A stretch of 35,240 nt of DNA from a virus (taxonomy: Duplodnaviria > Heunggongvirae > Uroviricota > Caudoviricetes). The position numbers were made by a program, and so were the translations under genes. Of the stretch, positions 1-34,306 are shown piece by piece; position 1 is the stretch's first letter, and each line of letters begins with the position of its first letter. Below the pieces are notes generated by a model that worked only from the letters and a program-made list of their open reading frames with translations, was not told the DNA's origin and did not search any database. The stretch lies in the IMG/VR virus record IMGVR_UViG_649989946_000003; one strand, written 5' to 3'.

Positions 1-1050
1 TTAATCGGGGAGCATATCATTAGCTTCGGTATGCTGTGTGGGCATTGTAGATAATGGATTGTAGTGTAGCGCTGTATTAAGGTGATCCGGTGCAAGATGA
101 GCGTAACGCATTGTCATTTTTATATCGTGATGTCCGAGGATTTTTTGCAAAGCAAGGATATTTCCACCCGACATCATGAAGTGCGCCGCAAACGTATGGC
201 GCAGAACGTGTGTCAGTTGACCGCGAGGGAGCACGATAGACGTTTTTTCCATCACGGATAAAAATTGAAAATAGCAGTCTGTGAAGAAATTGAACCCATC
301 AAGCGCCATGATCTCTTCGTAAAGCTCTTTACTGATAGGGATGCTTCTGTTTTTCTTCCCCTTCGTTCTTACAAAGGTAATTCGGTATTTGGTCACCTGT
401 GATCGGGTAAGGTTTATTGCTTCTCGCCAGCGTGCGCCTGTGCTTAAGCATATCTTGACTACCAGTGCCAGAATTGGGTCCTGACGTTTGCAATCAGCCA
501 GCAATTCAACAATCTGCTCATGGGTAAGCCATGCCATCTCTTTTTCTGCGATGGTGAATTTTCGCATGTTCTCCAGTGGGTTCGGATACGACCATTCGCC
601 CAGGCGGGATAGTTCGCTAAAAACACTACTTAGATAGCTTTGCTCCAGGTTAATAGTGACCGGGCTTGCTCCTTTCTTCCATTTCTCGCTGAAGTAGATC
701 TCTCCTGTCAGGCGTTTATCTCGATAGTGGGCAAACATTTTAGAGGTGAGATCGGTTGCAAGGGGATTGCCAAGAGCGTCAACCATCAACAGCAATTTGT
801 CATAAACATGCTGCCCAGCAGTCAGAGATTTACCATGTAGTTTGAACCATAGCTCAACCACGTCTTTCAATGTCCGACGATCCACTGATTCGCCCAGCCA
901 GGGCTTTGCTTCTATTTCCCCCATGGTGTATCGCTCGAAGGCCAGTGCTTCGCCTTTGGTGGCGAATTGTTTACGCACACGACGCCCATTACGTCCGGCG
1001 GGGTAACATTCGCAAAGCCATTTCCCTGTGGTGAGTTTTCGTACTGCCAT
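1..1050 (-). CDS. int: P2-family tyrosine integrase; C-terminal end runs off the window start (no stop in window)
   Basis: ORF 1..1206(-). Likely start is the ATG at 1050 (protein begins MAVRKLTTGKW...GRNGRRVRKQFATKGEALAFERY, matching my recollection of the P2 Int N-terminus), preceded by GGAGGG. C-terminal HxxR...Y region (VLRHTFAAH...MRYAHLAPDHL) is typical of tyrosine recombinases. Confidence 0.9.
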   Translation of the reverse strand: MAVRKLTTGKWLCECYPAGRNGRRVRKQFATKGEALAFERYTMGEIEAKPWLGESVDRRTLKDVVELWFKLHGKSLTAGQHVYDKLLLMVDALGNPLATDLTSKMFAHYRDKRLTGEIYFSEKWKKGASPVTINLEQSYLSSVFSELSRLGEWSYPNPLENMRKFTIAEKEMAWLTHEQIVELLADCKRQDPILALVVKICLSTGARWREAINLTRSQVTKYRITFVRTKGKKNRSIPISKELYEEIMALDGFNFFTDCYFQFLSVMEKTSIVLPRGQLTHVLRHTFAAHFMMSGGNILALQKILGHHDIKMTMRYAHLAPDHLNTALHYNPLSTMPTQHTEANDMLPD

Positions 1051-1238
1051 AAAAAATGCCCTCCAGTAGAGAGCATTTTCACTGTATGTATAACCAGTGT
1101 CAATGTATGAAATCCTACGACCATACATCTCACTGAAGCCATAATTAAGTTGGCTATTCTTTTTGCTATGTGAGCATGTAACTTTTGCGGTTAACCTGCG
1201 GCTCATTTTTATTTTAGGCGCAGATATAAAAGCAAAAG

Positions 1239-1445: not shown

Positions 1446-2015
1446 CTATTTAACATACTTGACTGTTAAACTTATAATTTTACCAATTATTTCAATGTCT
1501 TCTATCTTGCATTCGAAGGCTCTGTTTCCACCCTCGACGAAGATTCTTCCACCGGGTAAACGAGTAATGTCACGGATCGTTATTTCGCCATCAATACTTA
1601 TTACCCATTTACCATCACGTATATCATCAAATTCCTTATCACAAATAAATTCAGAATTATTATCTGTGATTACAAAAAGATTCTTGAATGCCGACGGTAG
1701 AAATTCTCTATCGAAAATATAAAAACCGTCTTCACACAAAGCCCCATCAGATAATACATATTTAGCAACTTCCATAGTATTTGTATTACCTGAAGTTTGC
1801 TTTGAACCATGCCCGGTTGTGAGCCAATTAAGCGAAGTGCCTGTTTCAAGGGCGCACTGGATTACCCATTCTGCTGGGAATGAGTCACGCATGTAGCGTG
1901 TGGCGAGTGTACTTTTAGAGATTCCTAAATGATCGCACAACGCCTGTCGAGTCTTGAATCCATAAGCTTCTACCATGCGCTCTATAGCGCCTCGTCCGCC
2001 TTTCTCCAAATTCAT
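1446..2015 (-). CDS. cI: phage 186-type CI immunity repressor
   Basis: About 189 aa, far longer than P2 C (99 aa) and the size of 186 CI. Transcribed divergently from apl/cII. ATG at 2015 with a GGAG-type RBS; ORF-track start at 2021 is an in-frame GTG. Confidence 0.8.
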   Translation of the reverse strand: MNLEKGGRGAIERMVEAYGFKTRQALCDHLGISKSTLATRYMRDSFPAEWVIQCALETGTSLNWLTTGHGSKQTSGNTNTMEVAKYVLSDGALCEDGFYIFDREFLPSAFKNLFVITDNNSEFICDKEFDDIRDGKWVISIDGEITIRDITRLPGGRIFVEGGNRAFECKIEDIEIIGKIISLTVKYVK

Positions 2016-2039
2016 GGTCACTCCAAGTGAACTTTTGTC

Positions 2040-3968: not shown

Positions 3969-4195
3969 TGGCTGATGCAATGGATCTCGTACAGCAGCGC
4001 GTTGAAGAAGAACGCCAGCGCCATATCCGTGCTGCCCGTGCCAAAACGCCGGGCGTGTCCCGCGTGCTTTGTATTGAGTGTGAAGCACCAATTCCGCCAG
4101 CACGACGCCGCGCCATTCCGGGAGTGCAGCTTTGCATTACCTGTCAGGAAATCGCAGAGCTGAAAGGCAAACATTACAACGGAGGTGCTGTATGA
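3968..4195 (+). CDS. TraR/DksA-family C4 zinc-finger protein
   Basis: 75 aa with CxxC...CxxC (CIECEAPIP ... CITCQEIAE), the arrangement of phage/plasmid TraR-like proteins. Translationally coupled to neighbours (ATGA overlap at 4192). Confidence 0.7.
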   Translation: MADAMDLVQQRVEEERQRHIRAARAKTPGVSRVLCIECEAPIPPARRRAIPGVQLCITCQEIAELKGKHYNGGAV

Positions 4196-5049
4196 GCACC
4201 ATCCTGAAATGGGCGGGAAATAAAACCACCATAATGTCCGAACTGAAAAAACATCTTCCTGCTGGCCCGCGACTGGTTGAACCTTTCGCGGGTTCCTGTG
4301 CTGTGATGATGGAGACGGATTATCCCAGCTATCTGGTTGCGGATATTAATCCTGATTTAATCAACCTCTATAAAAAGGTTGCCGCTGATTGTGAATCGTT
4401 TATATCTCGCGCCAGAGTTTTATTTGAGATCGCAAACAGGGAGGTGGCTTATTACAACATAAGGCAGGAGTTTAATTACTCAACTGAAATTACTGATTTC
4501 ATGAAAGCGGTATATTTCCTGTATCTCAATCGTCACGGTTACCGTGGTTTATGTCGCTATAACAAGAGCGGGCATTTCAACATTCCCTACGGTAATTATA
4601 AAAATCCGTATTTCCCTGAAAAAGAAATTCGCGCATTTGCAGAAAAGGCCCAGCGAGCAACGTTTATCTGCGCCAGCTTTGATGAAACGCTGGCGATGTT
4701 GAAGGCGGGGGATGTGGTGTATTGCGATCCGCCGTATGACGGTACGTTTTCCGGCTATCACACTGACGGCTTCACTGAAGATGACCAGTATCACCTGGCA
4801 TCTGTTCTTGAACATCGGTCATCAGAAGGACATCCGGTCATTGTTTCTAACAGTGACACATCCCTGATCCGTTCGCTGTATCGCAATTTTACTCACCACT
4901 ACATCAAGGCAAAACGCAGCATCGGTGTGGCAGCTGGCGAGGGTAAATCAGCAACAGAAATCATTGCTGTTTCCGGGCCGCGCTGCTGGGTGGGATTTGA
5001 TTATTCGCGTGGCGTGGATAGTTCTGCCGTGTACGGAGTACGTGCATGA
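4192..5049 (+). CDS. dam: phage-encoded DNA adenine methyltransferase (Dam-like, N6-adenine)
   Basis: DPPY catalytic motif ([10 protein letters not shown]) and an N-terminal SAM-binding-like segment (EPFAGSCAV). Start taken as the ATG at 4192 ([11 protein letters not shown]); ORF-track start at 4132 is a 5' extension. Confidence 0.9.
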
Positions 5050-7460
5050 GTCATGCCGATATGAACAACTGCTGCGGCTTCAACGAAGCTGCCGCATCGT
5101 TCTCATGGAACAGCCCGAAAAAGGCCATTAACCCTTATCTGGACCCGGTGGAAGTTGCGCCGGTTTCTACGCTTTCAAACCTGATCACTCTGTACGCTGC
5201 CGATAACGAGCAGGAACAGCTGCGCCGTGAGGCGCTGAGTGATCAGGTCTGGGAGCGTTATTTCTTTAATGAATCCCGTGATCCTGTCCAGCGCGAAATG
5301 GAACAGGATAAGCTCATTAGTCGGGCAAAGCTGGCGCATGAGCAGCAGCGTTTTAATCCGGATATGGTCATTCTGGCGGACGTCAACGCCCAGCCTTCCC
5401 ATATCAGCAAGCCGCTAATGCAACGTATTGAATACTTCAGCAGCCTGGGCAGGCCAAAGGCTTATTCCCGCTATTTACGTGAGACGATTAAGCCATGTCT
5501 GGAACGACTGGAGCATGTACGCGACAGTCAGCTATCTGCATCTTTTCGCTTTATGGCAAGCCATGAAGGGCTGGACGGCCTGCTGATCCTGCCTGAAATG
5601 AGTCAGGATCAGGTGAAACGCCTGTCCACCCTGGTAGCTGCGCATATGAGTATGTGCCTTGATGCCGCTTGTGGCGATTTGTATGCCACCGATGACGTTA
5701 AGCCAGAAGAAATCCGCAATACATGGGAAAGGGTGGCAGCGGAAACCCTGCGTCTGGATGTCATCCCGCCTGCGTTTGAGCAACTCCGTCGGAAAAGAAA
5801 CCGCCGTAAACCCGTGCCCTATGAACTCATTCCGGGTTCGCTGGCGCGTATGTTGTGCGCCGACTGGTGGTATCGGAAATTATGGAAGATGCGTTGCGAA
5901 TGGCGGGAAGAGCAGTTGCGTGCTGTCAGCCTGGTCAGCAAAAAAGCATCTCCCTATGTCAGCTATGAAGCCGTGATGCATAAACGTGAGCAGCGCCGTA
6001 AGTCGCTGGAGTTTTTCCGTTCTCATGAACTGGTGAACGAAGACGGCGACACGCTGAACATGGAGGATGTGGTAAACGCCAGCAGCAGCAACCCGGCGCA
6101 TCGCCGCAATGAGATGATGGCCTGTGTTAAAGGCCTGGAGCTTATCGCGGAAATGCGTGGTGACTGCGCCGTTTTCTACACCATCACCTGTCCGTCACGT
6201 TTCCATTCCACGCTAAATAACGGCAGGCCAAACCCGACCTGGACCAACGCGACAGTAAGACAAAGCAGCGATTATCTGGTCGGCATGTTTGCTGCATTTC
6301 GTAAGGCTATGCACAAAGCCGGGTTGCGCTGGTATGGCGTGCGGGTGGCTGAGCCGCATCATGACGGCACAGTTCACTGGCACCTGTTGTGTTTCATGCG
6401 CAAAAAAGAGCGCCGCGCCATTACTGCATTGTTGCGTAAGTTTGCCATCCGTGAAGACCGCGAGGAGCTGGGCAATAACACGGGGCCACGCTTTAAGTCT
6501 GAGCTGATAAACCCGCGCAAAGGAACGCCGACAAGCTACATTGCGAAATATATCAGTAAGAATATTGACGGGCGTGGTCTGGCTGGCGAGATCAGTAAGG
6601 AAACGGGTAAATCCCTGCGTGATAACGCTGAATACGTTAATGCCTGGGCGTCTCTGCATCGTGTTCAGCAATTCCGCTTCTTTGGCATTCCGGGGCGTCA
6701 GGCTTACCGTGAACTGCGATTGCTGGCTGGTCAGGCGGCAAGGCAACAGGGTGACAAAAAAGCAGGTGCGCCGGTACTGGATAACCCGCGCCTTGATGCC
6801 ATCCTGGCTGCTGCTGATGCTGGTTGTTTTGCCACCTACATCATGAAGCAGGGCGGCGTACTGGTTCCCCGCAAATATCACCTCATCAGAACCGCTTATG
6901 AAATCAACGAAGAGCCAACCGCCTATGGCGATCACGGTATTCGTATTTATGGCATCTGGTCACCCATTGCAGAGGGCAAGATCTGCACTCATGCAGTGAA
7001 GTGGAAAATGGTTCGTAAGGCCGTTGACGTTCAGGAGGCGGCAGCCGACCAGGGCACTTGCGCCCCTTGGACTCGTGGCAATAACTGTCCCCTTGCTGAA
7101 AATTTGAACCAACAGGAGAAAGATAAATCAGCTGATGGGGACACCAGAACGGACATTACCCGCATGGATGACAAGGAGTTGCACGATTACCTGCACAGTA
7201 TGAGCAAAAAAGAGCGCCGGGAACTGGCAGCAAGGTTACGCCTGGTTAAACCGAAACGGCGTAAAGACTACAAACAGCGAATTACAGACCATCAGCGACT
7301 GCAGCTCGTCTATGAGCTGAAGTCCAGAGGATTTGATGGCAGCGAGAAAGAGGTCGATTTACTCCTTCGCGGCGGCAGTATTCCGTCAGGAGCAGGCTTG
7401 CGTATCTTCTATCGGAACCAGCGTTTGTGGGAAGATGATAAGTGGCGGAACCTGTATTAA
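5046..7460 (+). CDS. A: replication initiation endonuclease (P2 gpA / 186 A, rolling-circle initiator)
   Basis: 804 aa with an HUH-like motif ([10 protein letters not shown]) and a Tyr-containing motif (YIAKYISK). Start overlaps the dam stop (ATGA), RBS GGAG. Confidence 0.9.
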
Positions 7461-7508
7461 TTACGCGGATTAACAATTCGTGCTCTTAATAATACCAGGC
7501 ATATCAGG

Positions 7509-7538
7509 CTGATGAACGTAAAAAACGTTTTACATCAG
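7509..7538 (+). terminator. imperfect hairpin downstream of gene A (possible terminator)
   Basis: CTGATGAACGT ... ACGTTTTACATCAG inverted repeat followed by an AT-rich tract. Confidence 0.3.
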
Positions 7539-7551
7539 TAATATTATTATA

Positions 7552-7571
7552 TACTGTAAATATAAACAGTG
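7552..7571. promoter_or_regulatory. LexA (SOS) box
   Basis: tACTGTaaatataaACAGtg: CTGT (7554-7557), 8-nt AT-rich spacer, ACAG (7566-7569), a perfect match to the CTGT-N8-ACAG consensus. It sits about 40 nt upstream of the 7613 ORF and overlaps a -10-like TATACT. Confidence 0.65.
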
Positions 7572-7612
7572 GTTATGCATACAGTATTGCTTGTGGTGTC
7601 ATAGGAGGAAAA

Positions 7613-7801
7613 ATGCAGGACTATTTTTTGGAGTCTTTGAAGCTCCAGCGCATTGATTTTTTTCTTAAGCTTGTAGCGGCTAGTGAGTGTAGTGATGAAG
7701 AGAAGGGGCTGGCTCTGCAGTGGGTTTCAGAGCTGACTGATGAGTTGATGGCGAAAATTCGTGCCCATGAATATAACCGTGTAATGGATCTTCTCGGTTA
7801 G
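7613..7801 (+). CDS. small SOS-controlled protein (62 aa) in the position of the 186 tum antirepressor locus
   Basis: Strong RBS AGGAGG 4-5 nt before the ATG. Immediately downstream of the LexA box and of gene A, where 186 carries the LexA-repressed p95/tum unit. Sequence similarity to Tum could not be verified. Confidence 0.5.
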   Translation: MQDYFLESLKLQRIDFFLKLVAASECSDEEKGLALQWVSELTDELMAKIRAHEYNRVMDLLG

Positions 7802-7971
7802 CAGCAGGGGCGTTGCTGGCGTGAGAACTAGATTCTCGCGTCAGCAAGGTCAACTAAGGATTGAAACAGAAAGCCCTTGAAAACAGTAGCAAGTTGCCTA
7901 TTATCTACGCTGTATTTAATCGATGTCATTGGCTGTAATACCTTAAGTGATATTGAAAGGCGGTGTGGGGA

Positions 7972-9132
7972 ATGGATCTGGCTAAAGTTGAAGAACGCGT
8001 CCGAAGAGTCATAGGGACAATGGAGTCTGCCGAGCTTGATGAATATTTTTGGGGTAAGCGCTCGGGTTTGGGAGACTCATTACCTCCGTATTATCTCGTT
8101 TATTTTCTTTTGGTAGATTTACTGAAATTTAAAAATCGTGGGGTTGATGAGAAGATTTCTTTTTCTATCCCAGTCCGGATTGATGGGACTGTCGTAATTA
8201 TAGAACATCGTAAACTTGGTTTAGATATATTTATCAAGAGTGATGATGATATAGAGCAAGCTAAAACTGTTTTGAGACATATTTGCGCAGGGGTTAAAGC
8301 TGCTACGAATTTTTTTGACTCGCTTGCAGACAATGCAGCAAAGACTTCAAATCTAAATGTTAATAACAATGCTAATTCTCTTTATGATAGGTTTTGCTAT
8401 TTTTTAGAGCTATATAAACAGAAGCTTGATGAAGTTGCTGCTGGCCAAGAGTCTAAACTGGAAGTTGATAGTGAGTTTAAGTCTGATAATTTTTTCAGCC
8501 TGTTACAATCCACTTTTGAACAATCAAATAAGATAATTGAACTCCGAAGAGAGGCTATGTGGTTAGCAACGTCTGCAATTGAGTCATTTTTCAATTGGAC
8601 CGAGCATGTTTTCATTCTTATTGCAATCTTGAAGGGTGAGATAAAAAATGGGAATGATGTGGCTGATAAAGTTGGAAAAGAATGGGGGGAGAAATTCAAA
8701 TTAGCCATTGATATTAACTCTTCCAGTCTAAAATTGTTCTATGATCGTTTACTTATACTCAGAAAACAGGTGCGTAATTTTGTAGCCCATGGCGCCTTCG
8801 GTAAGGATGGGCAAGCATTGGAATTTCACTCAAGTGTAGGGGCTGTGCCACTATTGCTGCCTCATCGAGAAAATAAAGAACGTTTCAAGTTTGGAAATGG
8901 TGTGCATTTTTTGGCACCTGAAGCAATGCAATTAATTAACGATTTTCTTGAAAATTTGTGGCAGGGAAAACTGTCCCCAGCAAAAATTTATATTGAATCT
9001 GGATGTCCTTTAATACTATCTTACGTAACTAATGGAACCTATGCGGAGGCGATGAAATCAGAAAGGAATATGGACTTATTTGTTAATTACTTAACTCGTG
9101 AGATGGATAATGCCGCAAACATGGATTGGTAA
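7972..9132 (+). CDS. AT-rich cargo protein (386 aa) with an HEPN-like Rx4H motif; candidate abortive-infection/defence effector
   Basis: Long ORF of visibly lower GC than the phage core. ATG at 7972 (in-frame GTG at 7963). Motif R-N-F-V-A-H at 8773-8790 (LRKQVRNFVAHG) resembles the HEPN catalytic motif; no Walker A, so not Old-like. Confidence 0.6.
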   Translation: MDLAKVEERVRRVIGTMESAELDEYFWGKRSGLGDSLPPYYLVYFLLVDLLKFKNRGVDEKISFSIPVRIDGTVVIIEHRKLGLDIFIKSDDDIEQAKTVLRHICAGVKAATNFFDSLADNAAKTSNLNVNNNANSLYDRFCYFLELYKQKLDEVAAGQESKLEVDSEFKSDNFFSLLQSTFEQSNKIIELRREAMWLATSAIESFFNWTEHVFILIAILKGEIKNGNDVADKVGKEWGEKFKLAIDINSSSLKLFYDRLLILRKQVRNFVAHGAFGKDGQALEFHSSVGAVPLLLPHRENKERFKFGNGVHFLAPEAMQLINDFLENLWQGKLSPAKIYIESGCPLILSYVTNGTYAEAMKSERNMDLFVNYLTREMDNAANMDW

Positions 9133-9332
9133 ACTCTAGGTGTGGGTTACAAACACACAAAAAATCTTCCTGAGTTAGGTGTTATCCCAACCCAAGGCTG
9201 TGTCAGGAAAACTTCATATGGCGCATGAGATCGCATGATAGTATGACGATCGTTTTCGCTGATGCCAGCCAGAACTGGCGTGCTTTTGCTTATGTCATGC
9301 AGGTGCATGAAAACCACTATATAAAGTGGGCA

Positions 9333-9351
9333 GGCGTGGCGGGGATACGAT
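9333..9351. other. candidate cos site (cohesive-end sequence)
   Basis: GGCGTGGCGGGGATACGAT followed by TGCGCGC, resembling (from memory) the P2 cohesive end GGCGAGGCGGGGAAAGCAC + TGCGCGC. Lies in a GC-richer non-coding block between two AT-rich cargo genes, upstream of Q. Confidence 0.45.
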
Positions 9352-9432
9352 TGCGCGCAGAAGATTATTATTGGTACACTGTCGGTGACTCTCTACGCAG
9401 ATCTTACACATTAATTTCTAATGGGGCATGCT

Positions 9433-10233
9433 ATGATCTTTCTAAGTCATAATCACCGTGACAAAAGGTTTGTAAGTGTTATAGCGGAAAAACTAGCAGA
9501 TGTTTATGGGCGTGATAACGTATTCTACGATTCTTGGTCTATCCAACCCGGAGAGGGTATTATTGACAAGATGAATTTAGGAATGGAGAATGTATCGTTC
9601 TTTTTCTTTTTTGTCACAGAAAATAGTTTGGCAAGTAACATGGTAAAAATGGAATGGCAAAATGCTTTAATTAAGGCATCGTCCGGGAAGTGTAAATTTA
9701 TACCAATACGTTGCCAGAATATATCCTTGCCTGCTCTGCTTACTCAAACGCTATATATTGATCTTTATTCGTATGGGATCGATGTGGCAATAAGACAAAT
9801 TATAGATGTCATTAATCAACAAAATACGTATATTCCTAATCCTGAGAAGTATTCAAACCTCTCCTATGATATTAAGGATGGTGATGGGGGTAAGATAGTG
9901 AAATTATCAGCAATGGATTTTTTAGAACCAATTGCTGATTTTATGATGATTATGGATAATACAATTAAGCATGATGATGTTGTTGTTATGGTCAATGGAG
10001 AAAGCACATTCACTCAGGGGTTTATTGAAAATGCATCTTTAGAAAATGGTATGAAAGTAAGTGGTGCCACTGTTGGCCTAAATCGGGGGTTAACACCAAC
10101 GATGCCAATGTATGTTTCTCTTAGGTTAAAGGATGGTTCACCTTTGAATATATTTGCGGTGCTACATCGAGTAAGTACCGAGCGTTATGCTCCTATACCA
10201 CATAAAGCCGATGATGCCTTTAGAGTAAAATAA
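9433..10233 (+). CDS. TIR-domain protein (266 aa): N-terminal TIR domain plus about 130-aa C-terminal domain of unknown function
   Basis: N-terminal block IFLSHNHRDKRFVS...VFYDSWSIQPGEGI...FFFFFVTENSLASNMVKMEWQNALIKA matches TIR hallmarks, including the conserved Glu in the S..W..E region (codon 9652-9654). AT-rich. ATG at 9433 with a G-rich RBS. Confidence 0.75.
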   Translation: MIFLSHNHRDKRFVSVIAEKLADVYGRDNVFYDSWSIQPGEGIIDKMNLGMENVSFFFFFVTENSLASNMVKMEWQNALIKASSGKCKFIPIRCQNISLPALLTQTLYIDLYSYGIDVAIRQIIDVINQQNTYIPNPEKYSNLSYDIKDGDGGKIVKLSAMDFLEPIADFMMIMDNTIKHDDVVVMVNGESTFTQGFIENASLENGMKVSGATVGLNRGLTPTMPMYVSLRLKDGSPLNIFAVLHRVSTERYAPIPHKADDAFRVK

Positions 10234-10242
10234 AAAGCAATA

Positions 10243-10268
10243 TGGTGGCTATATAATTAAGGCCACCA
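10243..10268. terminator. hairpin between convergent TIR gene and Q (bidirectional terminator candidate)
   Basis: TGGTGGC (10243-10249) / GCCACCA (10262-10268), 7-bp stem with AT-rich loop and T/A-rich flanks. Confidence 0.4.
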
Positions 10269-10277
10269 ATTTATATC

Positions 10278-11306
10278 TCATAAACAATAGGATGAAAATG
10301 CAATAACTTTCTCACCCAGCCAATGGTTTAACTCCTCCATGCGTTTCTGTAATGGCAAAAGTTCATTGCGCACAAACACATTTGCGGCCTTCTCCACATC
10401 CCCAAACCCTCCAACATTATTAGGCATAATCCCCATCATTTGCGGCGGCACGCGGTGCGCAGCCATCATGTCATCGCGGCTCACGTTCTTGATATTCAAA
10501 AACTCATCCTTCGCCGCCACCTCTGACAACGGGATAATCTGAAGCCCGTCCTTTTTGCCGTTAGGCGAGTACATAAACAGGTTGCGGAAGTTACCCGGAC
10601 CTTTGGCACTTTTCATTGCATTGCGGAGGTTGTTCACGTCCTCCTGGTTCTGCGCAGCATCGGTCATGTACATGATGAAGCCTGCATGACTACCGTTAAT
10701 GTAATACTTGCGGCGGAACAGCGTGGCGGACTCATTGAGCAGGGCGGACGGAATGGCAGAAAGATAGCCGGGCAGGCCGTAGATCTCCTGGTTAATGTCC
10801 GGTTCCATCAGATGAAAAATGCTGCCTTTCGTGAACTGATACGGCTGGGTTGTCATACCGTATTGCACAAACCAGTAGGTATCCAGGTCTAACCCGCGTC
10901 GGGTGTATTTTGCCAGAGCAGGCTCAAGGGCGATAACTTCACCGAAGCGGTTCGTGCGTTTCTCCAGGTAGGCGTTACCAAATACCAGATAGTCCTGCAC
11001 AAAACGTGAAAAAGCCTGCTGGCTGAGCAGCGGGTGAGGGATGTAGGTACTGGTCAGAATGTTGCATTTCACCGCAATTGGTGAACTGTGATGCACGGCG
11101 GCGCGGAAGGTGCGCGCCAGTCCGTCAAAGCTTACTGGCGGCTCATACCAGCGATCTGTCTGTACGCATTCCACATAGTCCAGCAGTTCTCGGCGGTCCA
11201 GAACAGGAACGGGATCGCCGAAGCTGAATGCTTCGGCTGTAGTTTGACTTTTAAGCTGGATCTGTTTCGTCGCCGCAGCGCGGTTCTTCTTACTCTTTCC
11301 CATCAA
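10278..11306 (-). CDS. Q: capsid portal protein
   Basis: 342 aa, position and size of P2 gpQ, translationally coupled downstream of the terminase gene. Confidence 0.9.
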   Translation of the reverse strand: MMGKSKKNRAAATKQIQLKSQTTAEAFSFGDPVPVLDRRELLDYVECVQTDRWYEPPVSFDGLARTFRAAVHHSSPIAVKCNILTSTYIPHPLLSQQAFSRFVQDYLVFGNAYLEKRTNRFGEVIALEPALAKYTRRGLDLDTYWFVQYGMTTQPYQFTKGSIFHLMEPDINQEIYGLPGYLSAIPSALLNESATLFRRKYYINGSHAGFIMYMTDAAQNQEDVNNLRNAMKSAKGPGNFRNLFMYSPNGKKDGLQIIPLSEVAAKDEFLNIKNVSRDDMMAAHRVPPQMMGIMPNNVGGFGDVEKAANVFVRNELLPLQKRMEELNHWLGEKVIAFSSYCL

Positions 11307-13069
11307 AAAATCTCCACAATATTGCTGGTATTGGCGGACTCGCCTTGCAGCGGTTCGTTAAACAGTGCGTGCATCGTTGCCCAGGCCAGATCCGCATGGC
11401 TGGCTTCTTCGCTGCGGCTGGCTTCATAGGTCGGGCGGTTGCCACTGGCGGTGGTGGAGCGACGGATTGCCATAAAGGACTGCGCTATGTCGGTGTGTCC
11501 GGCGTCAAACTCCAGACGGCGGTGGCTGATAATGTCGTAGGCCTTGAGTACCAGGGCGTTTTTAACGTTGGGGTTGTAGACAAACTCCCGGACGGCAGGA
11601 AAGAATGCTTTCACGTTCTCGTAAACCCCGTGGCCGACGCCAGTTGAGTCGATGCCGATGTATGTCACGTTGTACTGTTCGGTCAGTTTTTTGATGGCGT
11701 CAGCCTGGGCGCGGAAGTCCATCCCGCGCCACTGGTGACGCTCAAGAATGCGGAACTTACCGCCCGGCACGGCTGGCGGTGCCACCACCACGCACCCGGC
11801 GCTGTCGCCGTTCTGCGTACCTTTTGCCGGGTCATAACCGATCCACACCTCGCGCCAGCCAAACGGGCGCAGCGCCAGTGCATGAAAGTCGGTCCAGACT
11901 TCCCAGCTGTCCACCATGCACGCCTGCAGCTCGCTGAGCGGGAACACGGACGCGAGATCGTCCACAAACTCGCACATCAGCAGGTTCTGGTATTCGTCCG
12001 GGCTGTACTCCATGCGCAACTGGTCAAGGTCGAACAGGTTACAGCCGCCGCGCACCGCATCTTCCACGGTGACTATCTGGCGGTACTGCCCGTCTGCGCA
12101 CAGCAGGCCGGGGGCCAGATTGCGGTGGGACAGGTCGATGTCCACCTTATCGGCTTTGTTGCGCCCTCGGTTGAACAGCGCACCGGACCAGAACGGATAA
12201 GCACTGTGTGTCAGGCTGGATGGCGTGGAAAAATAGGTTTGTCGCCATTTTTTGTGAATAGCCATACCGGAAGCCACTTTGCGCAGCTCCTGGAATTTCG
12301 GTATCCAGAAATATTCATCCAGATACAGGTTGCCGTGGTAACTCTGGGCCGTGCGGGCATTGGTGCCGAGGAAGTAAAGCGTGGCCCCGTTAGGAAGCAC
12401 CATCGGATCGCCTTTCAGCTCCACCTCCACTTCTTTGGCGAAGTCGATGATGTACTGCTTAAAGACGTGGGCCTGTGCCTTACTGGCGGAAAGGAAAATC
12501 TGGTTACGCCCGGTAAGCAGGGCGTCAATCAGGGCTTCACGGGCAAAGTAAAAGGTCGCGCCGATCTGGCGTGACTTCAGCAGATTGCGGATGCGGTTGG
12601 TTTTTCCGGCTTCCCACCAGTGGCGCTGGTAGTTGAACATGGAGGAATGGAAGATTTCTTCCAGCTTCTCAATCTGCTCATCGGTGAAAACATTCTTTTC
12701 CGGCTGACGGCGTGGGCCTTTGTTGCGGTTGGCGACGTTTGGGTTTAAGTCGGCTTCGTTGCCGCCATTGTTAAACTTGCCGATCCGCGCGTGGCGCTCC
12801 GACTGGCGCGCCAGCAGGTCAATCTCTTTGAAATCTTTCCCTTCTTTGTGCTCCTTCATGATGAGCTGGCAGTAGCGTGCGGCGGTGGTGAGCTGCATCT
12901 GATCCAGCGGCCCATAGTCACCCCACTTGTCGCGTTTTTTCCAGCTGTGAACGGTTGCAACTTTCTCGCCCAGCATTTCAGCTATGCGGGCTACGCGGTA
13001 TCCCTGAAAGTACAGCAGCATGGCCTGCCGACGGGGATCGAGATCTGCGGGTGTCAGTGTGGTGTTCAT
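11303..13069 (-). CDS. P: terminase large (ATPase) subunit
   Basis: 588 aa, size and position of P2 gpP, divergent from the O operon. Confidence 0.9.
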   Translation of the reverse strand: MNTTLTPADLDPRRQAMLLYFQGYRVARIAEMLGEKVATVHSWKKRDKWGDYGPLDQMQLTTAARYCQLIMKEHKEGKDFKEIDLLARQSERHARIGKFNNGGNEADLNPNVANRNKGPRRQPEKNVFTDEQIEKLEEIFHSSMFNYQRHWWEAGKTNRIRNLLKSRQIGATFYFAREALIDALLTGRNQIFLSASKAQAHVFKQYIIDFAKEVEVELKGDPMVLPNGATLYFLGTNARTAQSYHGNLYLDEYFWIPKFQELRKVASGMAIHKKWRQTYFSTPSSLTHSAYPFWSGALFNRGRNKADKVDIDLSHRNLAPGLLCADGQYRQIVTVEDAVRGGCNLFDLDQLRMEYSPDEYQNLLMCEFVDDLASVFPLSELQACMVDSWEVWTDFHALALRPFGWREVWIGYDPAKGTQNGDSAGCVVVAPPAVPGGKFRILERHQWRGMDFRAQADAIKKLTEQYNVTYIGIDSTGVGHGVYENVKAFFPAVREFVYNPNVKNALVLKAYDIISHRRLEFDAGHTDIAQSFMAIRRSTTASGNRPTYEASRSEEASHADLAWATMHALFNEPLQGESANTSNIVEIF

Positions 13070-21515: not shown

Positions 21516-23053
21516 GCACAAAATTTTATACCCTGCTGACGGATATTGGCGCGGCGAAACTTGCCAGCGCCGCCGCGCTCGGTGTGCCGCTAAAAATTAC
21601 CCATATGGCGGTCGGCGATGGCGGCGGAGTATTGCCAACGCCAGACTCAAAGCAGACTGCACTGGTAAATGAGAAACGCCGGGCTGCGCTGAATATGCTC
21701 TATATCGACCCGCAGAACAGCAGCCAGATTATTGCCGAACAGGTGATCCCTGAAAACGAGGGCGGTTGGTGGATACGTGAAGTGGGCTTGTTTGATGAGT
21801 CCGGGGCATTGATTGCCGTGGGCAACTGCCCGGAAAGCTATAAGCCGCAACTGGCTGAAGGTAGCGGGCGCACTCAGACCGTGCGCATGGTGCTGATTAC
21901 CAGCAGCACGGACAATATCACCCTGAAAATCGACCCTGCCGTAGTGCTGGCAACCCGCAAGTATGTGGATGACAAGGCACTGGAGCTGAAGGTGTACGCG
22001 GATGATCAGATGGCAAAACATCTTGCCGCACCGGACCCGCATTCACAGTATGCACCCAAAGAAAGTCCGACGTTTACCGGGACACCCAAAGCGCCAACGC
22101 CAGCCGCAGGGAATAACACCACGCAGATTGCGACCACCGCGTTTGTTCAGGCGGCTCTGACGGCTCTTATTAATGGTGCGCCAGCCACGTTGGACACACT
22201 GAAAGAAATAGCCGCAGCCATTAACAATGATCCGAAATTCAGTACCACCATTAACAATGCGCTGGCACTGAAAGCGCCGCTGTCGAGTCCGGCACTCACC
22301 GGAACGCCAACCGCACCTACTGCGGCACAGTCGGTCAACAATACACAGATTGCCACCACGGCATTTGTGAAATCGGCGATTGCGGCAATGGTGGGTTCTG
22401 CACCTGCGGCACTGGATACACTGAACGAACTGGCGGCAGCGCTGGGGAATGACCCGAACTTTGCCACGACAATGCTTAATGCGCTGGCAGGTAAACAACC
22501 GCTGGACAATACGCTGACTAATTTGAGTGGAAAGGATGTAGCTGGTCTTCTCACATACCTTGGTTTGGGAGAAGGTTCGGCATTACCTGTTGGTGTACCT
22601 GTTCCATGGCCTTCAGCCATTCCGCCGACAGGCTGGCTGAAATGCAACGGTGCAGCTTTTTCTGCTGAAGAATACCCGGAACTGGCAAAGGCTTATCCGA
22701 CAAATAAATTGCCTGATTTACGTGGTGAGTTTATTCGTGGCTGGGATGACGGGCGTGGAGCTGACAGTGGTCGGGGATTATTAAGCTTTCAAAAAGCCAC
22801 TCTGGTTGAAAGTTTTGGTCTGGTCAGGTCACCAACCACTGGCTCTTATCGTCTGGTTACCAGACCGACAGAAACTGTTTCTGATAATACGTCTAACTAT
22901 ATGACGACTGATTATGATTCCCGTGAAGGTTTATATTCCTCTGCAACAGCATACCCCTCTATCGAATTGCCACCAACTGGAGCAGGCGCAGGGGCTGGTT
23001 TTAGGGTTCGACCAAGGAATATTGCATTTAACTATATTGTGAGGGCTGCATAA
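21512..23053 (+). CDS. H: tail fibre protein H (constant N-terminal part fused to the currently expressed variable C-terminal part)
   Basis: 513 aa; N-terminal virion-attachment region, tandem fibre repeats, C-terminal receptor-binding part. A hix-like crossover site lies inside the gene at 22549-22574. Confidence 0.9.
   Translation: MSTKFYTLLTDIGAAKLASAAALGVPLKITHMAVGDGGGVLPTPDSKQTALVNEKRRAALNMLYIDPQNSSQIIAEQVIPENEGGWWIREVGLFDESGALIAVGNCPESYKPQLAEGSGRTQTVRMVLITSSTDNITLKIDPAVVLATRKYVDDKALELKVYADDQMAKHLAAPDPHSQYAPKESPTFTGTPKAPTPAAGNNTTQIATTAFVQAALTALINGAPATLDTLKEIAAAINNDPKFSTTINNALALKAPLSSPALTGTPTAPTAAQSVNNTQIATTAFVKSAIAAMVGSAPAALDTLNELAAALGNDPNFATTMLNALAGKQPLDNTLTNLSGKDVAGLLTYLGLGEGSALPVGVPVPWPSAIPPTGWLKCNGAAFSAEEYPELAKAYPTNKLPDLRGEFIRGWDDGRGADSGRGLLSFQKATLVESFGLVRSPTTGSYRLVTRPTETVSDNTSNYMTTDYDSREGLYSSATAYPSIELPPTGAGAGAGFRVRPRNIAFNYIVRAA
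22117..22500 (+). repeat. tandem ~50-aa coding repeat inside tail fibre H
   Basis: Two copies of ...TQIATTAFV..A...GAPA.LDTL.E.AAA..NDP.F.TT..NALA.K.P... Confidence 0.5.
22549..22574 (+). repeat. left inversion crossover site (hix-like)
   Basis: TCTCACATACCTTGGTTTGGGAGAAG, inside H. Confidence 0.6.
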
Positions 23054-23655
23054 TGGATAACGCCATATTAAATAGCGAGATTATCGCCACCAAAGCAGGG
23101 AATATTACCGTCTATAACTATGATGGTGAAACTCGAGAATATATTTCCACTTCAAATGAATATCTTGCTGTTGGCGTCGGTATCCCTGCATATTCCTGTT
23201 TAGATGCCCCTGGCACACATAAGGCGGGTTATGCTATCTGCCGTTCGATGGATTTAAACTCATGGGAATATGTGCCAGACCATCGCGGTGAAATCGTCTA
23301 TAACACCGAAACGGGAGACGCAAAAGAAATCACAACTCCGGGTGATTACCCCGAAGAAACAACCACTATCGCCCCGTTAACGCCATACGATAAATGGGAT
23401 GGTGAAAAATGGGTGACAGATACTGAGGCACAATACGGTGCCGCAGTAGACGCGGCAGAAGCACAGCGCCAGTCACTGATTGATGCAGCAATGGCTTCCA
23501 TCAGTCTGATTCAACTGAAATTGCAGGCCGGACATAAACTGACGCAGGCAGAAACAACCAGACTTAACGCTGTGCTGGATTACATTGACGCGGTGACGGC
23601 AACAGATACCAGCACCGCGCCGGATGTCATCTGGCCTGAACTGCCGGAGGCGTAG
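23053..23655 (+). CDS. G: tail fibre assembly chaperone G
   Basis: 200 aa; start overlaps the H stop (TAATG). Confidence 0.85.
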   Translation: MDNAILNSEIIATKAGNITVYNYDGETREYISTSNEYLAVGVGIPAYSCLDAPGTHKAGYAICRSMDLNSWEYVPDHRGEIVYNTETGDAKEITTPGDYPEETTTIAPLTPYDKWDGEKWVTDTEAQYGAAVDAAEAQRQSLIDAAMASISLIQLKLQAGHKLTQAETTRLNAVLDYIDAVTATDTSTAPDVIWPELPEA

Positions 23656-24070
23656 GCCATTCAATATCTGGCGCACCGGAAGTATCGATCAGCTCCAGTG
23701 CGTCCAGATAATCCAGCCACAAATTATATTGCGCCAGTTCATCACCTTTCAGACGACCAATAGCGGCTTTGCCGGGCCATTGCTTACTGTTCATGTATTC
23801 GTTGGCCTGGTTAATTAGTAGCTGTCTTTCTGATTCAGTAATTTCAATAAGTTCTTCATGCGTGGGTGGAGGAATATCTGCCCACGCGGGCTGCCCATCA
23901 CCTCCGGCAATACGGATTTTTCCTTGTGGCGGTTCAGCCATAAATTCACTGATAATATTTTGATTCACCTCTTTAGCATCTGATAAATCCCATCCCTCTG
24001 ATTTATATTTATCAATCATATCCACAGGGAAAAAAGCATTATGCCTTGCGCTATAAACATATTCGTTCAT
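23627..24070 (-). CDS. alternative tail fibre assembly chaperone (G')
   Basis: 147 aa from the ATG at 24070, convergent with and overlapping G; conserved C-terminal Tfa-like motif (YNLWLDYLDALELIDTSGAPDIEWP, compare G: LNAVLDYIDAVTATDTSTAPDVIWP). Confidence 0.8.
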   Translation of the reverse strand: MNEYVYSARHNAFFPVDMIDKYKSEGWDLSDAKEVNQNIISEFMAEPPQGKIRIAGGDGQPAWADIPPPTHEELIEITESERQLLINQANEYMNSKQWPGKAAIGRLKGDELAQYNLWLDYLDALELIDTSGAPDIEWPTPPAVQAR

Positions 24071-24090
24071 ATAAATCACCCTTAATAAAA

Positions 24091-24464
24091 TTACTCACCA
24101 ACAGCCCACCAACTGTAATTCATCGATACTGTGGAACTGGTTGATGCAGTTCTGTAAGCGGAATTAAAACCGGTTAATGTTGGACCTTCTGCGGTCATCA
24201 CGAATCCCCGTCCAGCACCTAAAGGTGCACCACCATCACCAGAATGAGTAAGCATGGCGCAGTCCACTTTTTTAGGAAAAGGGATGCTGAATGTAATTCT
24301 CATTGTTTGCGTCGATAATGTCGGCGTAACCGCACCTCGACCATATTGCAGGATTTTACCGTTGGGTAATTTCATCCATCCATCACCACTGGCAAAAGAA
24401 GCCATATCCGGTATCTGATTTTCCCCTGTTCCCACATCCCGTTTTGCCGCTTCTCCCAAACCAA
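24091..24464 (-). CDS. alternative tail fibre C-terminal segment (promoterless; expressed only after inversion)
   Basis: Minus-strand ORF ending at 24091, entering at the right crossover site where the shared GLGE junction codons lie. Confidence 0.65.
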
Positions 24465-24475
24465 CGTTTAAGAAA
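24450..24475 (-). repeat. right inversion crossover site (hix-like, inverted relative to the left site)
   Basis: Reverse complement reads TTTCTTAAACGTTGGTTTGGGAGAAG. Confidence 0.6.
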
Positions 24476-24531
24476 ATGCAGCGATTACGGCTAACTGGCA
24501 TCATCCCCTATTTTTATTCAGGGAGATGATC

Positions 24532-25097
24532 ATGCTTATTGGCTATGTACGCGTGTCAACAAATGACCAGAACACCGATTTGCAACGTAATGCGCTGAAC
24601 TGCGCGGGATGTGAGCGGATTTTTGAGGACAAAATCAGTGGCACTAAGTCCGACAGACCGGGGCTTAAAAAACTGCTCAGGACACTATTGGCAGGAGACA
24701 CGCTGGTTGTCTGGAAGCTGGACAGGTTGGGGCGCAGTATGCGGCATCTTGTTACGCTGATAGAAGAGTTGCGCCAGCGTGGTGTGAATTTCCGAAGCCT
24801 GACTGACAGTATTGATACCAGTACCCCAATGGGCCGTTTCTTTTTCATGTCATGGGTGCCCTGGCTGAAATGGAACGCGAACTGATAGTTGAACGTACCC
24901 GGGCAGGGCTGGCTGCAGCTCGTGCTAAAGGCAGAGTAGGTGGACGCCGTCCTAAGTTGACCACTGAACAGTGGGCACAGATTGGACGTTTACTCGAGGC
25001 CGGAGAATCAAGACAGCGTATTGCACTGATTTTTGATGTAGGCGTTTCTACCATTTATCGAAAATTTCCGGCAAATAAGAGCAATAAATCTCCCTGA
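24532..25097 (+). pseudogene. pin: Pin/Hin/Gin-family serine DNA invertase, split by a 1-nt frameshift in a T5 run (about 24841-24845)
   Basis: N-terminal part MLIGYVRVSTNDQNTDLQRNAL... stops after ...SIDTSTPMGRFFF; the continuation MGALAEMERELIVERTRAGLAAARAKGR... is in the next frame (ORFs 24526..24885 and 24852..25097). One extra T would restore the GRFFFHVMGALAEME junction recalled from e14 Pin. Confidence 0.8.
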
Positions 25098-32620: not shown

Positions 32621-34306
32621 TTATCCTAATCCTGGCCATACCATGACGATGATTGTCCCTGCCAGCGTCAGCAGGACGTTGGCGATTGCATAGGTGCCCG
32701 CATAGCCCAGCGCCGGGATGTTACTGCGAGCTGTATCACTGATGATCTCCATTGCCGGCGCGCAGGTACGTGCGCCCATCATTGCGCCGAACAACAGCGC
32801 GCGGTTCATTCGCAATACATAAGCACCGAACAAGAAACAGATAACCACGGGCACCAGACTGACAATCAATCCGGCAATCAACATCTGACCGCCAATCGCG
32901 CCCAAGCCGTTATTAATACCGCTACCGGCGCTCAGACCAACGCCTGCCATAAACACCATCAAGCCGAACTCTTTCACCATGCTTAATGCACCCTGCGGAA
33001 TGTAACCGAAGGTCGGGTGGTTAGCACGCATAAAGCCCAGCATAATTCCGGCGAATAACAACCCGGCAGCGTTCCCCATGCCGAAACTGAATGTGCTGAA
33101 CTGGAAGGTGATCATCCCGATCATCAGCCCAATAACAAAGAAGGCGCAAAATGCCAGCAGGTCAGTGACCTGGCTGTGAATCGAGATAAAGCCGATGCGA
33201 TCGGCGATGGTTTTTACGCGACGGGCATCACCGCTGACTTGTAAAACGTCACCTTTGTTAAGCACGACGTTGTCATCTATCGGCATCTCAATCTGGCTAC
33301 GAATGACGCGGTTAAGGAAGCAACCGTGATCGGTCAACTTCAGTTGTGCGAGACGTTTACCTACAGCGTTATGGTTTTTAACGACCACTTCTTCAGTGAC
33401 GATACGCATGTCGAGAAGGTCACGATCGAAAACTTCTTTACCGTTACGGAAGCTGGGATCGAGTCGGGCATGGGCGTCGGGATAGCCTACCAACGCTATT
33501 TCATCGCCCATTTGTAGCACGGCATCACCGTCTGGATTTGCCAGAATCCCGTTACGTCGAATACGTTCAATGTAGCAGCCGGTTTGTCGATAAATACCCA
33601 GTTCACGCAGATTTTTGCCGTCGGTCCAGGCCACCAGCTCCGGGCCGACGCGATAGGCGCGGATCACCGGTAAATAAACCTTACGGTTGGCATCAGTGTC
33701 CAGGCCACGTTCGCGGGCGATTTGCTGGGCGCTGGTCTGTAAGTCCTGATGCTGCAATTTCGGCAAGTAACGCGCACCAACAATCAAACTCACCAGACCG
33801 ATTAAATAGGTTAAGGCATACCCGAGGCTCAGATTATCCAGTGCCAGTGAGAGCTGCCTGCTTTCCATGCCGGAATGACGCAGTGTATCGCCAGCACCGA
33901 CCAGAACCGGTGTCGACGTCATAGAGCCTGCTAACATACCGGCCGTCAGGCCAATATCCCAGCCAAACAGCTTACCTAACCCTAAGGCGATCACCAGCGC
34001 ACTGCCAACCATCACCAGTGCTAACATTAGGTAATTTTTCCCATCGCGAAAAAAAATGGAAAAAAAGTTCGGTCCGGCTTCAACCCCAACACAGAAAATA
34101 AACAGCATAAAGCCAAGATTAAGCGCATCGGTGTTAATGCTGAAATGTTGTTGGCCTAATAACAGCGATACGACTAAAACGCCAATGGAATTACCCAGTT
34201 GGATCGAACCAAGTCGTAACTTTCCGAGACATAGCCCAAGCGCGAGGACCACAAATAATAACAGAATGTAATTCCCATTTAACAATTCGGCGACGTTTAT
34301 ATTCAC
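32621..34306 (-). CDS. ybjL: host putative transporter YbjL (AAE-family permease with internal TrkA-C-like domains)
   Basis: 561-aa membrane protein recognised as E. coli YbjL ([30 protein letters not shown]...). Confidence 0.9.

Follow-up and report, generated by a model that had tools for sequence, protein, structure and literature searches.

A TIR and beta-sandwich protein encoded between cos and the portal gene of a P2-like E. coli prophage, a candidate single-protein anti-phage system

Organization of the prophage region

The analysed sequence, a stretch of 35,240 nucleotides referred to below as the window, corresponds to a P2/186-like prophage of E. coli, as established from gene content and profile searches. 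Its left part contains an integrase gene (1-1206, minus strand), a gene for a 186-type CI repressor (1446-2021, minus strand), a Dam-type methylase gene (4132-5049) and the replication gene A, coding for gpA (5046-7460; Phage_GPA, E=6e-126). Gene A is followed by a conserved 62-aa ORF (7613-7801, plus strand; phrog_698, E=4e-36, function unknown) and by a low-GC cargo gene of 386/389 aa, located left of cos (7972-9132, plus strand). Right of cos are found the gene described here (9433-10233, plus strand), the portal gene Q (10278-11303, minus strand), recognized by Pfam Phage_portal (E=7.6e-18) and named 'phage portal protein' in RefSeq, the terminase gene P (11303-13069, minus strand) and, to the right of P, the capsid and tail genes. 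A host permease gene lies at 32621-34306. The region 7461-10277 was compared with three complete E. coli chromosomes, to which it is 99.8-99.9% identical.

The cos core, a 19-nt cohesive-end sequence, was located at 9333-9351 by local alignment to the joined P2 ends: the sequence GGCGTGGCGGGGATACGAT aligns to P2 cosL, GGCGAGGCGGGGAAAGCAC. The same 19-mer, either identical or with the last T changed to G, is present in seven related E. coli prophage loci (L001-L004 and L015-L017). Since cos is at 9333-9351 and the stop codon of Q at 10278, the gene falls between cos and Q; this placement, already proposed in the initial annotation, is now anchored to the P2 alignment.

The reading frame is open from 9421 to 10233 on the plus strand, with in-frame ATG codons at 9421 and 9433. 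The second one is taken as the true start, because homologues from many phyla all begin with MIF(L/I)SHN and the RefSeq gene is 801 nt long, and both facts back the complete 266-aa gene (9433-10233) originally called. The product is RefSeq WP_000576799.1, and the exact protein is found in public databases under generic TIR names only. The gene had also been described as AT-rich, in agreement with a GC content of 0.33-0.43 over positions 9201-10400; in the neighbouring structural genes, it is 0.53-0.61. A search for sigma-70 promoters between cos and the start codon gave no convincing site. At the other end, RNA folding of 10234-10290 returned a 10-bp interrupted stem (-13.8 kcal/mol); the hairpin, at 10243-10268, separates the convergent TIR and Q genes, and occupies the place corresponding to that of terminator tQ in the P2 annotation. 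It is likely to act as a terminator shared by the two genes. The E. coli copies of the cassette differ at 9 variable positions only, so that nothing can be said on selection.

Cargo exchange around cos

The gene is located between replication gene A and portal gene Q, that is, inside the P2 hotspot. In the analysis of Rousset 2022, this cos-proximal gpA-gpQ hotspot comprised 1,650 gene arrangements in 18,150 loci, TIR-containing systems included (PMC9122126), and it was confirmed by Vassallo 2022 (PMC9519451) and by a 2026 NAR study (PMC13586616). The site, which had been regarded as an unusual point for a moron insertion, is therefore an ordinary one: the whole gpA-gpQ region is a published defence hotspot of P2, and the cos-to-Q slot itself is filled by other cargo in other P2-like prophages of E. 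coli. Among the prophages inspected by hand, from which all the examples of cargo right of cos are taken, the slot contains a gene for a 557-aa hypothetical protein in L001 (4393-6198), one for an 89-aa hypothetical protein in L015 (4130-4738), and a pair of genes for an AAA-ATPase and an HNH endonuclease in L016 (3310 onward).

The distance between cos and Q is 926 nt in the window and 167 nt in P2, for which a value of about 100 bp had previously been assumed. In P2 all the cargo genes (orf91, tin and old) are found left of cos and none between cos and Q. The old/tin locus of P2 and the cargo of the window occupy the same inter-genic region, and both consist of low-GC, exchangeable genes; the window, like several other E. 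coli prophages, makes use of a second cargo slot, right of cos.

The edges of the exchanged segment were deduced from comparisons with prophages carrying other cargo. Homology to these stops at 9358-9359, 7-8 nt past cos, and restarts at 10303-10362, 25-85 nt inside the 3' end of Q. The breaks at both edges define an exchanged unit of about 9360-10302, which includes the terminator hairpin between Q and the TIR gene; as homology restarts within Q, the last 8-28 codons of this gene, together with the terminator, have been swapped along with the cargo. For the biology of P2, this means that the cargo on each side of cos is replaced independently of that on the other, and that the replacement runs on into the 3' end of Q.

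The initial annotation considered a stand-alone TIR protein next to cos as a configuration not described before. [quoted passage not shown] WP_000576799.1 itself is not listed in the accessible portions of the supplements to Rousset 2022 (PMC9122126).

The TIR domain

The protein is made of two domains, joined by a flexible linker. Residues 1-127 (9433-9813) form the TIR domain: Pfam TIR_2 (PF13676) matches residues 6-117 (E=1.3e-22) with a score of 81 bits, the cut-off being 28, and the AlphaFold model of the domain (pLDDT 90) has the flavodoxin-like fold of TIR domains. The possibility that the N-terminus is not a TIR fold, contemplated when the gene was first annotated as coding for a TIR-domain protein, was examined in this way, and the fold is that of a TIR. 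No deoxyribosyltransferase profile matched up to E=1.

Three of the sequence motifs on which that annotation was based, FLSHNHRDK (residues 3-11), VFYDSW (30-35) and KMEWQ (72-76), are present; the fourth, 'SxW..E', is literally missing, because the residue four positions before the glutamate is Met and not Trp. The stretch coding for residues 68-75 (9634-9657) reads S-N-M-V-K-M-E-W, and the family motif is S-x-M-V-x-x-E-W. The glutamate, Glu74 (codon 9652-9654), is invariant in 51 diverse homologues, and is aligned with the Glu of the WVKKE motif in the TIR-NLR structure 9m0n and of the WCWDE motif in Cat1 (9mud). On the basis of this alignment, it is the presumed catalytic residue of a TIR NADase site. 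Four residues upstream, the family features Met, at least 90% conserved, in place of the Trp found in the aligned sequences of TIR-NLR and Cat1; in the family, a Trp follows the Glu. This Trp-to-Met change may be accompanied by a chemistry, or a reaction product, differing from those of the known NADases. A BB-loop-like motif, SIQPG(D/E)G, is invariant across phyla.

The closest TIR profiles are PADLOC TIR-NLR (E=5e-8) and NCBIfam retron-TIR (E=8e-10), and the closest PDB sequences are 9m0n (E=5e-6) and Cat1 (E=9e-5). The nearest TIR sequences are thus those of TIR-NLR and retron-TIR, in which the TIR forms a fusion with the other parts of the system, rather than those of ThsB. The ThsB profiles of PADLOC gave weaker matches than TIR-NLR (E=7e-4 to 0.04), and NCBIfam ThcB4 reached 10.9 bits, against a cut-off of 220.

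The linker and the C-terminal beta-sandwich

The linker corresponds to residues 128-142 (9814-9858). Its pLDDT is about 57, falling below 50 at residues 134-136, and it ends with a conserved F/Y-S-N-L motif, in which N142 is invariant. The following residues, 143-256 (9859-10200), form a nine-strand beta-sandwich, modelled as an isolated domain with a pLDDT of 93.7 and a pTM of 0.86.

The C-terminal half had been reported as devoid of recognizable motifs, and no match to any described family was found: the domain is covered by no Pfam, NCBIfam, PADLOC or PHROG family, nothing significant was retrieved with the beta-sandwich among predicted viral structures, and no solved structure matches both domains. 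A profile of the domain, run against 1.84 billion representative proteins, identified 225 proteins. Truncated or chimeric gene calls apart, the domain is found in all of them at about residues 137-257 of proteins of 255-290 aa. Because its place is the same in all full-length matches, it is private to the TIR plus beta-sandwich architecture. Shuffling of the domain onto other effectors was considered and is not seen, the shorter matches being truncated or chimeric gene calls.

The two domains diverge at different rates, with a mean pairwise identity of 62% for the TIR domain and of 32% for the beta-sandwich. A conserved enzyme domain followed by a fast-diverging second domain is the pattern expected of an effector plus a specificity domain. 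A role as sensor or in oligomerisation, suggested earlier for this half of the protein, was judged the most reasonable reading, and the beta-sandwich is referred to as a putative sensor. It is never found on other effector types, and is therefore not demonstrably a modular sensor; it could be only an oligomerisation, regulatory or auto-inhibitory domain.

Distribution of the family

Sequence searches with the whole protein retrieved 945 clusters (90% identity) at E<=0.001. The best 120 of these 945 clusters almost all show 96-99% query coverage and 41-51% identity, over proteins of 255-281 aa. In a separate scan, limited to one genome per species, 120 relatives were found, and 80 loci were kept for analysis. 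They come from at least 10 phyla, and include Bacteroidota, Alpha-, Beta- and Gammaproteobacteria, Desulfovibrionales, Clostridia, Bacilli and Lactobacillales, as well as Spirochaetes, Dehalococcoidales, Ignavibacteria, Gracilibacteria and Margulisbacteria. Literature searches by accession, by architecture and by named TIR systems returned no paper on a TIR plus beta-sandwich family.

The genes reside in known defence or moron slots and in other mobile contexts. Homologues in lambdoid prophages are located in the nin region, and a Burkholderia homologue lies beside the integrase of an integrative element. Two 8-kb Bacillus plasmids carry a homologue of about 40% identity (L098, 6903-7706; L099, 3326-4129), in both cases adjoining a gene for a 190-aa tyrosine recombinase; no effector-like gene is present on either plasmid. 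A search of 50,697 deposited phage genomes detected no homologue. Both plasmids are non-mobilizable, with few cargo genes, and contain a DUF3967 gene.

This distribution bears on what the protein may do. One explanation is that of a Tcp-type virulence factor, interfering with the Toll-like receptor signalling of animals, as do TcpC in uropathogenic E. coli and BtpA/TcpB in Brucella. The protein is indeed a bacterial TIR protein of E. coli strains isolated from humans and animals, and shows weak sequence similarity to TcpB (4lqc, E=0.02) and PdTIR. However, members of the family are found in free-living or environmental organisms, such as Dehalococcoidales, marine Flavobacteriia, Gracilibacteria and Ignavibacteria, and neither a signal peptide nor a secretion context was seen. 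In addition, the TIR domain of TcpC is at the C-terminus. A virulence function is thus regarded as extremely improbable.

A second explanation is that the gene is a counter-defence function or an inter-phage weapon, which would protect P2 during its induction by removing or altering an immune messenger of the host or a signal derived from NAD, or would hit the P4 satellite. Temperate phages do carry the gene at cargo loci, and competition between P2 and P4, or between P2 phages, can involve hotspot cargo (PMC9122126). Against this, most of the 80 loci have no recognizable phage genes among the immediate neighbours, some of which are housekeeping genes, some homologues reside on small plasmids, and none was detected in sequenced phage genomes. 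We also know of no anti-defence protein that is a TIR-domain protein. Taken together, these observations make such a role very unlikely.

The gene might also be inactive or non-defensive cargo, coding for a nucleotide or nucleoside enzyme, a regulator of the prophage cycle or an addiction-like toxin, and conferring no measurable protection. The strong TIR_2 match, with no deoxyribosyltransferase profile up to E=1, and the invariance across phyla of both the Glu at the catalytic position and SIQPG(D/E)G speak against it, as does the horizontal spread into prophages, plasmids and integrative elements, which is the pattern of conflict genes. We consider inactive or non-defensive cargo unlikely, yet worth keeping in mind.

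Search for a partner gene

The association of the TIR gene with its neighbours was evaluated within E. coli and throughout the family. The 926-nt stretch 9352-10277 is present in 9 of 5,426 complete E. coli genomes, with an identity of at least 99.6% and in every case in the cos-to-Q slot. In these nine genomes the cargo left of cos varies: it is the 389-aa gene in three, a DUF4145 gene in four, an ASCH gene with a restriction-endonuclease fragment in one, and a gene for a 111-aa hypothetical protein in one. Co-occurrence with the 7972-9132 gene, suggested as a check when the locus was first annotated, gave three genomes with both genes, six with the TIR gene alone and seven with the 389-aa gene alone. 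A partnership between the two was consequently rejected, as each is found without the other and they lie on opposite sides of cos.

In the family at large, 856 flanking ORFs from the 80 loci, spanning at least 10 phyla, were clustered, and no neighbour family was present in more than 5 loci. Similarly, when 108 immediate neighbours were scanned, no Pfam or PADLOC family was present in more than 2 of them. The upstream genes of the Prolixibacter homologue share no relationship with those of the Burkholderia one. No CRISPR genes were found in the window or among the family neighbours, and no ThsA-type effector (SIR2-SLOG, Macro/TM or caspase-like) in the window. Neither the clustering of ORFs (80 loci) nor the Pfam/PADLOC scans (108 neighbours) thus revealed a conserved partner anywhere in the family, and the TIR gene is a stand-alone single gene.

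These data are relevant to a further explanation, that of an orphan Thoeris-like generator, in which the TIR, upon sensing a phage, would make a messenger of the cyclic ADP-ribose type, and the response would come from an effector whose gene lies at another place in the host genome. No ThsA-like or other gene is conserved beside the TIR gene in the 80 loci, and no ThsA-like gene is present in the prophage of the window or on the 8-kb plasmids. Moreover, a messenger gene moving alone between phyla and between mobile elements would rarely meet a matching effector. An orphan generator of this kind is accordingly held to be quite improbable.

In L018, L022 and others of the loci L018-L097, housekeeping genes and scattered genes related to defence or mobile elements are both found among the immediate neighbours of the homologues. 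The latter code for type II/III methylases, Vsr, Abi_2, a SMODS cyclase, a YobI ATPase, ArdA, TraQ and a second TIR_2 protein.

A possible one-protein abortive infection system

The explanation we favour, and regard as fairly probable, is that the gene, a cargo of the prophage, codes for an anti-phage sensor-effector complete in a single polypeptide, in which the beta-sandwich would sense infection and the TIR domain would deplete NAD+. In the lysogen the protein would be made at low level and kept inactive. Upon infection by another phage, the beta-sandwich would bind a phage cue, most likely a structural or otherwise abundant phage protein, and binding would lead the TIR domains to assemble into an active oligomer or filament. 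The site centred on Glu74 would then cleave NAD+, and the loss of NAD+ would cause growth arrest or cell death before the cycle of the invader is completed, as in abortive infection.

Several observations count in favour of this single-protein sensor-effector: the confident TIR fold, the invariant Glu74, the matches to TIR profiles of the fused type, the stand-alone gene, the hotspot, nin and integrative contexts, the conservation pattern of the two domains, and the precedent of SpbK and of TIR-V/VI/IX. Others count against it, namely the Met at the position four residues before the Glu, the beta-sandwich being private to the family, the lack of a convincing sigma-70 promoter and that of homologues in deposited phages. 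In addition, no more than 12 of the 32 TIR clusters tested in the E. coli survey defended against any of 111 phages (PMC11350192), so that a TIR domain located in a hotspot is no proof of defence.

SpbK (YddK), encoded by ICEBs1 of Bacillus subtilis, is a 267-aa TIR NADase activated when it binds a phage portal protein (PMC11984713); the structure of its filament is available (9phb). [quoted passage not shown] The order of the domains is different. SpbK begins with the sensor and ends with the TIR (residues 116-267; PMC11984713), whereas here the TIR spans residues 1-127 and the second domain residues 143-256. TIR-V and TIR-IX have superposable C-termini and differing N-termini (PMC11350192), which implies a C-terminal TIR, the opposite of what is found in the window protein. 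The non-TIR part also differs from that of SpbK, being a 115-residue beta-sandwich without detected relatives, and a phmmer search of PDB chains, among which SpbK is deposited, gave no SpbK match up to E=1. The protein can be likened to SpbK and to TIR-V/IX of E. coli, though its two domains come in the opposite order.

The N-terminal TIR of Rst_TIR-NLR (TIR-STAND-TPR, 9m0n) is the closest sequence relative of the TIR domain of the window. It belongs to a single-gene defence of P4-like satellites of P2, located in their hotspot next to cos (PMC9122126). Rst_TIR-NLR is, however, an 824-aa protein, with a STAND NTPase and a TPR sensor, and oligomerises in an NTP-driven manner, while the window protein has 266 aa and a small beta-sandwich, and matches only positions 4-93 of the 824 of the PADLOC TIR-NLR profile. 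Cat1 is closer in size (about 260 aa) and layout, its TIR being N-terminal and followed by a ligand sensor at the C-terminus; it forms filaments and degrades NAD+. Its C-terminal domain is a CARF, binding the cyclic tetra-adenylate of type III CRISPR systems, in contrast to the all-beta sandwich of the window protein, and Cat1 (9mud) superposes on the latter over 120 residues of the TIR part only. Thoeris ThsB is, like the window protein, a small bacterial TIR protein, and responds to phage infection. ThsB is always paired with an adjacent ThsA-type effector, but none is found beside the window gene or is conserved in the family.

The 2024 survey grouped into 64 clusters the TIR proteins found in the E. 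coli genomes that NCBI contained at the time, 2,289 in number (PMC11350192). Given this breadth, one of the 64 clusters may contain the TIR plus beta-sandwich protein; by a very rough estimate, judging from the numbers given there, the chance that it is already one of the named active systems is small. The protein plausibly represents a variant, with a wide distribution, of the single-protein TIR defences already known. A stronger version of the sensor-effector explanation is that it is the founding member of a widespread and still unnamed group of one-protein immune receptors, in which the beta-sandwich would be a new module for direct phage sensing and the Met four residues before the Glu would give a different reaction or product. 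This version is a possibility that we hold with considerable doubt.

If active, the protein would be among the smallest complete immune receptors, with one enzyme and one recognition domain in 266 residues, spread horizontally on prophages, plasmids and integrative elements in at least 10 phyla. Its architecture, an N-terminal TIR followed by a beta-sandwich, would join the few single-protein TIR defences with known triggers, and would offer a compact system in which to study how target binding switches on a TIR domain. The practical value is modest: the gene is a good candidate for a plaque screen, and no conceptual surprise is expected from it.

Other features of the prophage

The cargo gene left of cos (7972-9132) has no PADLOC, NCBIfam, PHROG or PDB match. 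Its only family match is a weak one to Csx1_HEPN (E=0.05, residues 222-282), over the sequence R-N-F-V-A-H, which is of the HEPN-like Rx4H type. The gene is an independent cassette and, judging from this similarity, may be a candidate HEPN-type defence gene.

The 62-aa ORF at 7613-7801 is kept in all the related prophages inspected. In many of them it is followed by a DinI-like gene, which is absent from the window.

The genome with the closest match, that of E. coli S43 (L004), contains a truncated terminase gene beside Q (6344-7027), which is wrongly labelled an 'oxidoreductase' pseudogene and is directly linked to a fragment of gpE and to the tape-measure gene. This junction indicates that, unlike the window, this copy of the prophage has lost the capsid genes and most of the tail genes.

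Finally, the tail-fibre region of the window (23053-24885) resembles an invertible host-range segment. It contains two oppositely oriented tail-fibre assembly genes (23053-23655, plus strand; 23627-24079, minus strand), a reversed C-terminal fragment of the tail fibre (24091-24504, minus strand) and a gene for a serine resolvase/invertase (24526-24885, plus strand).
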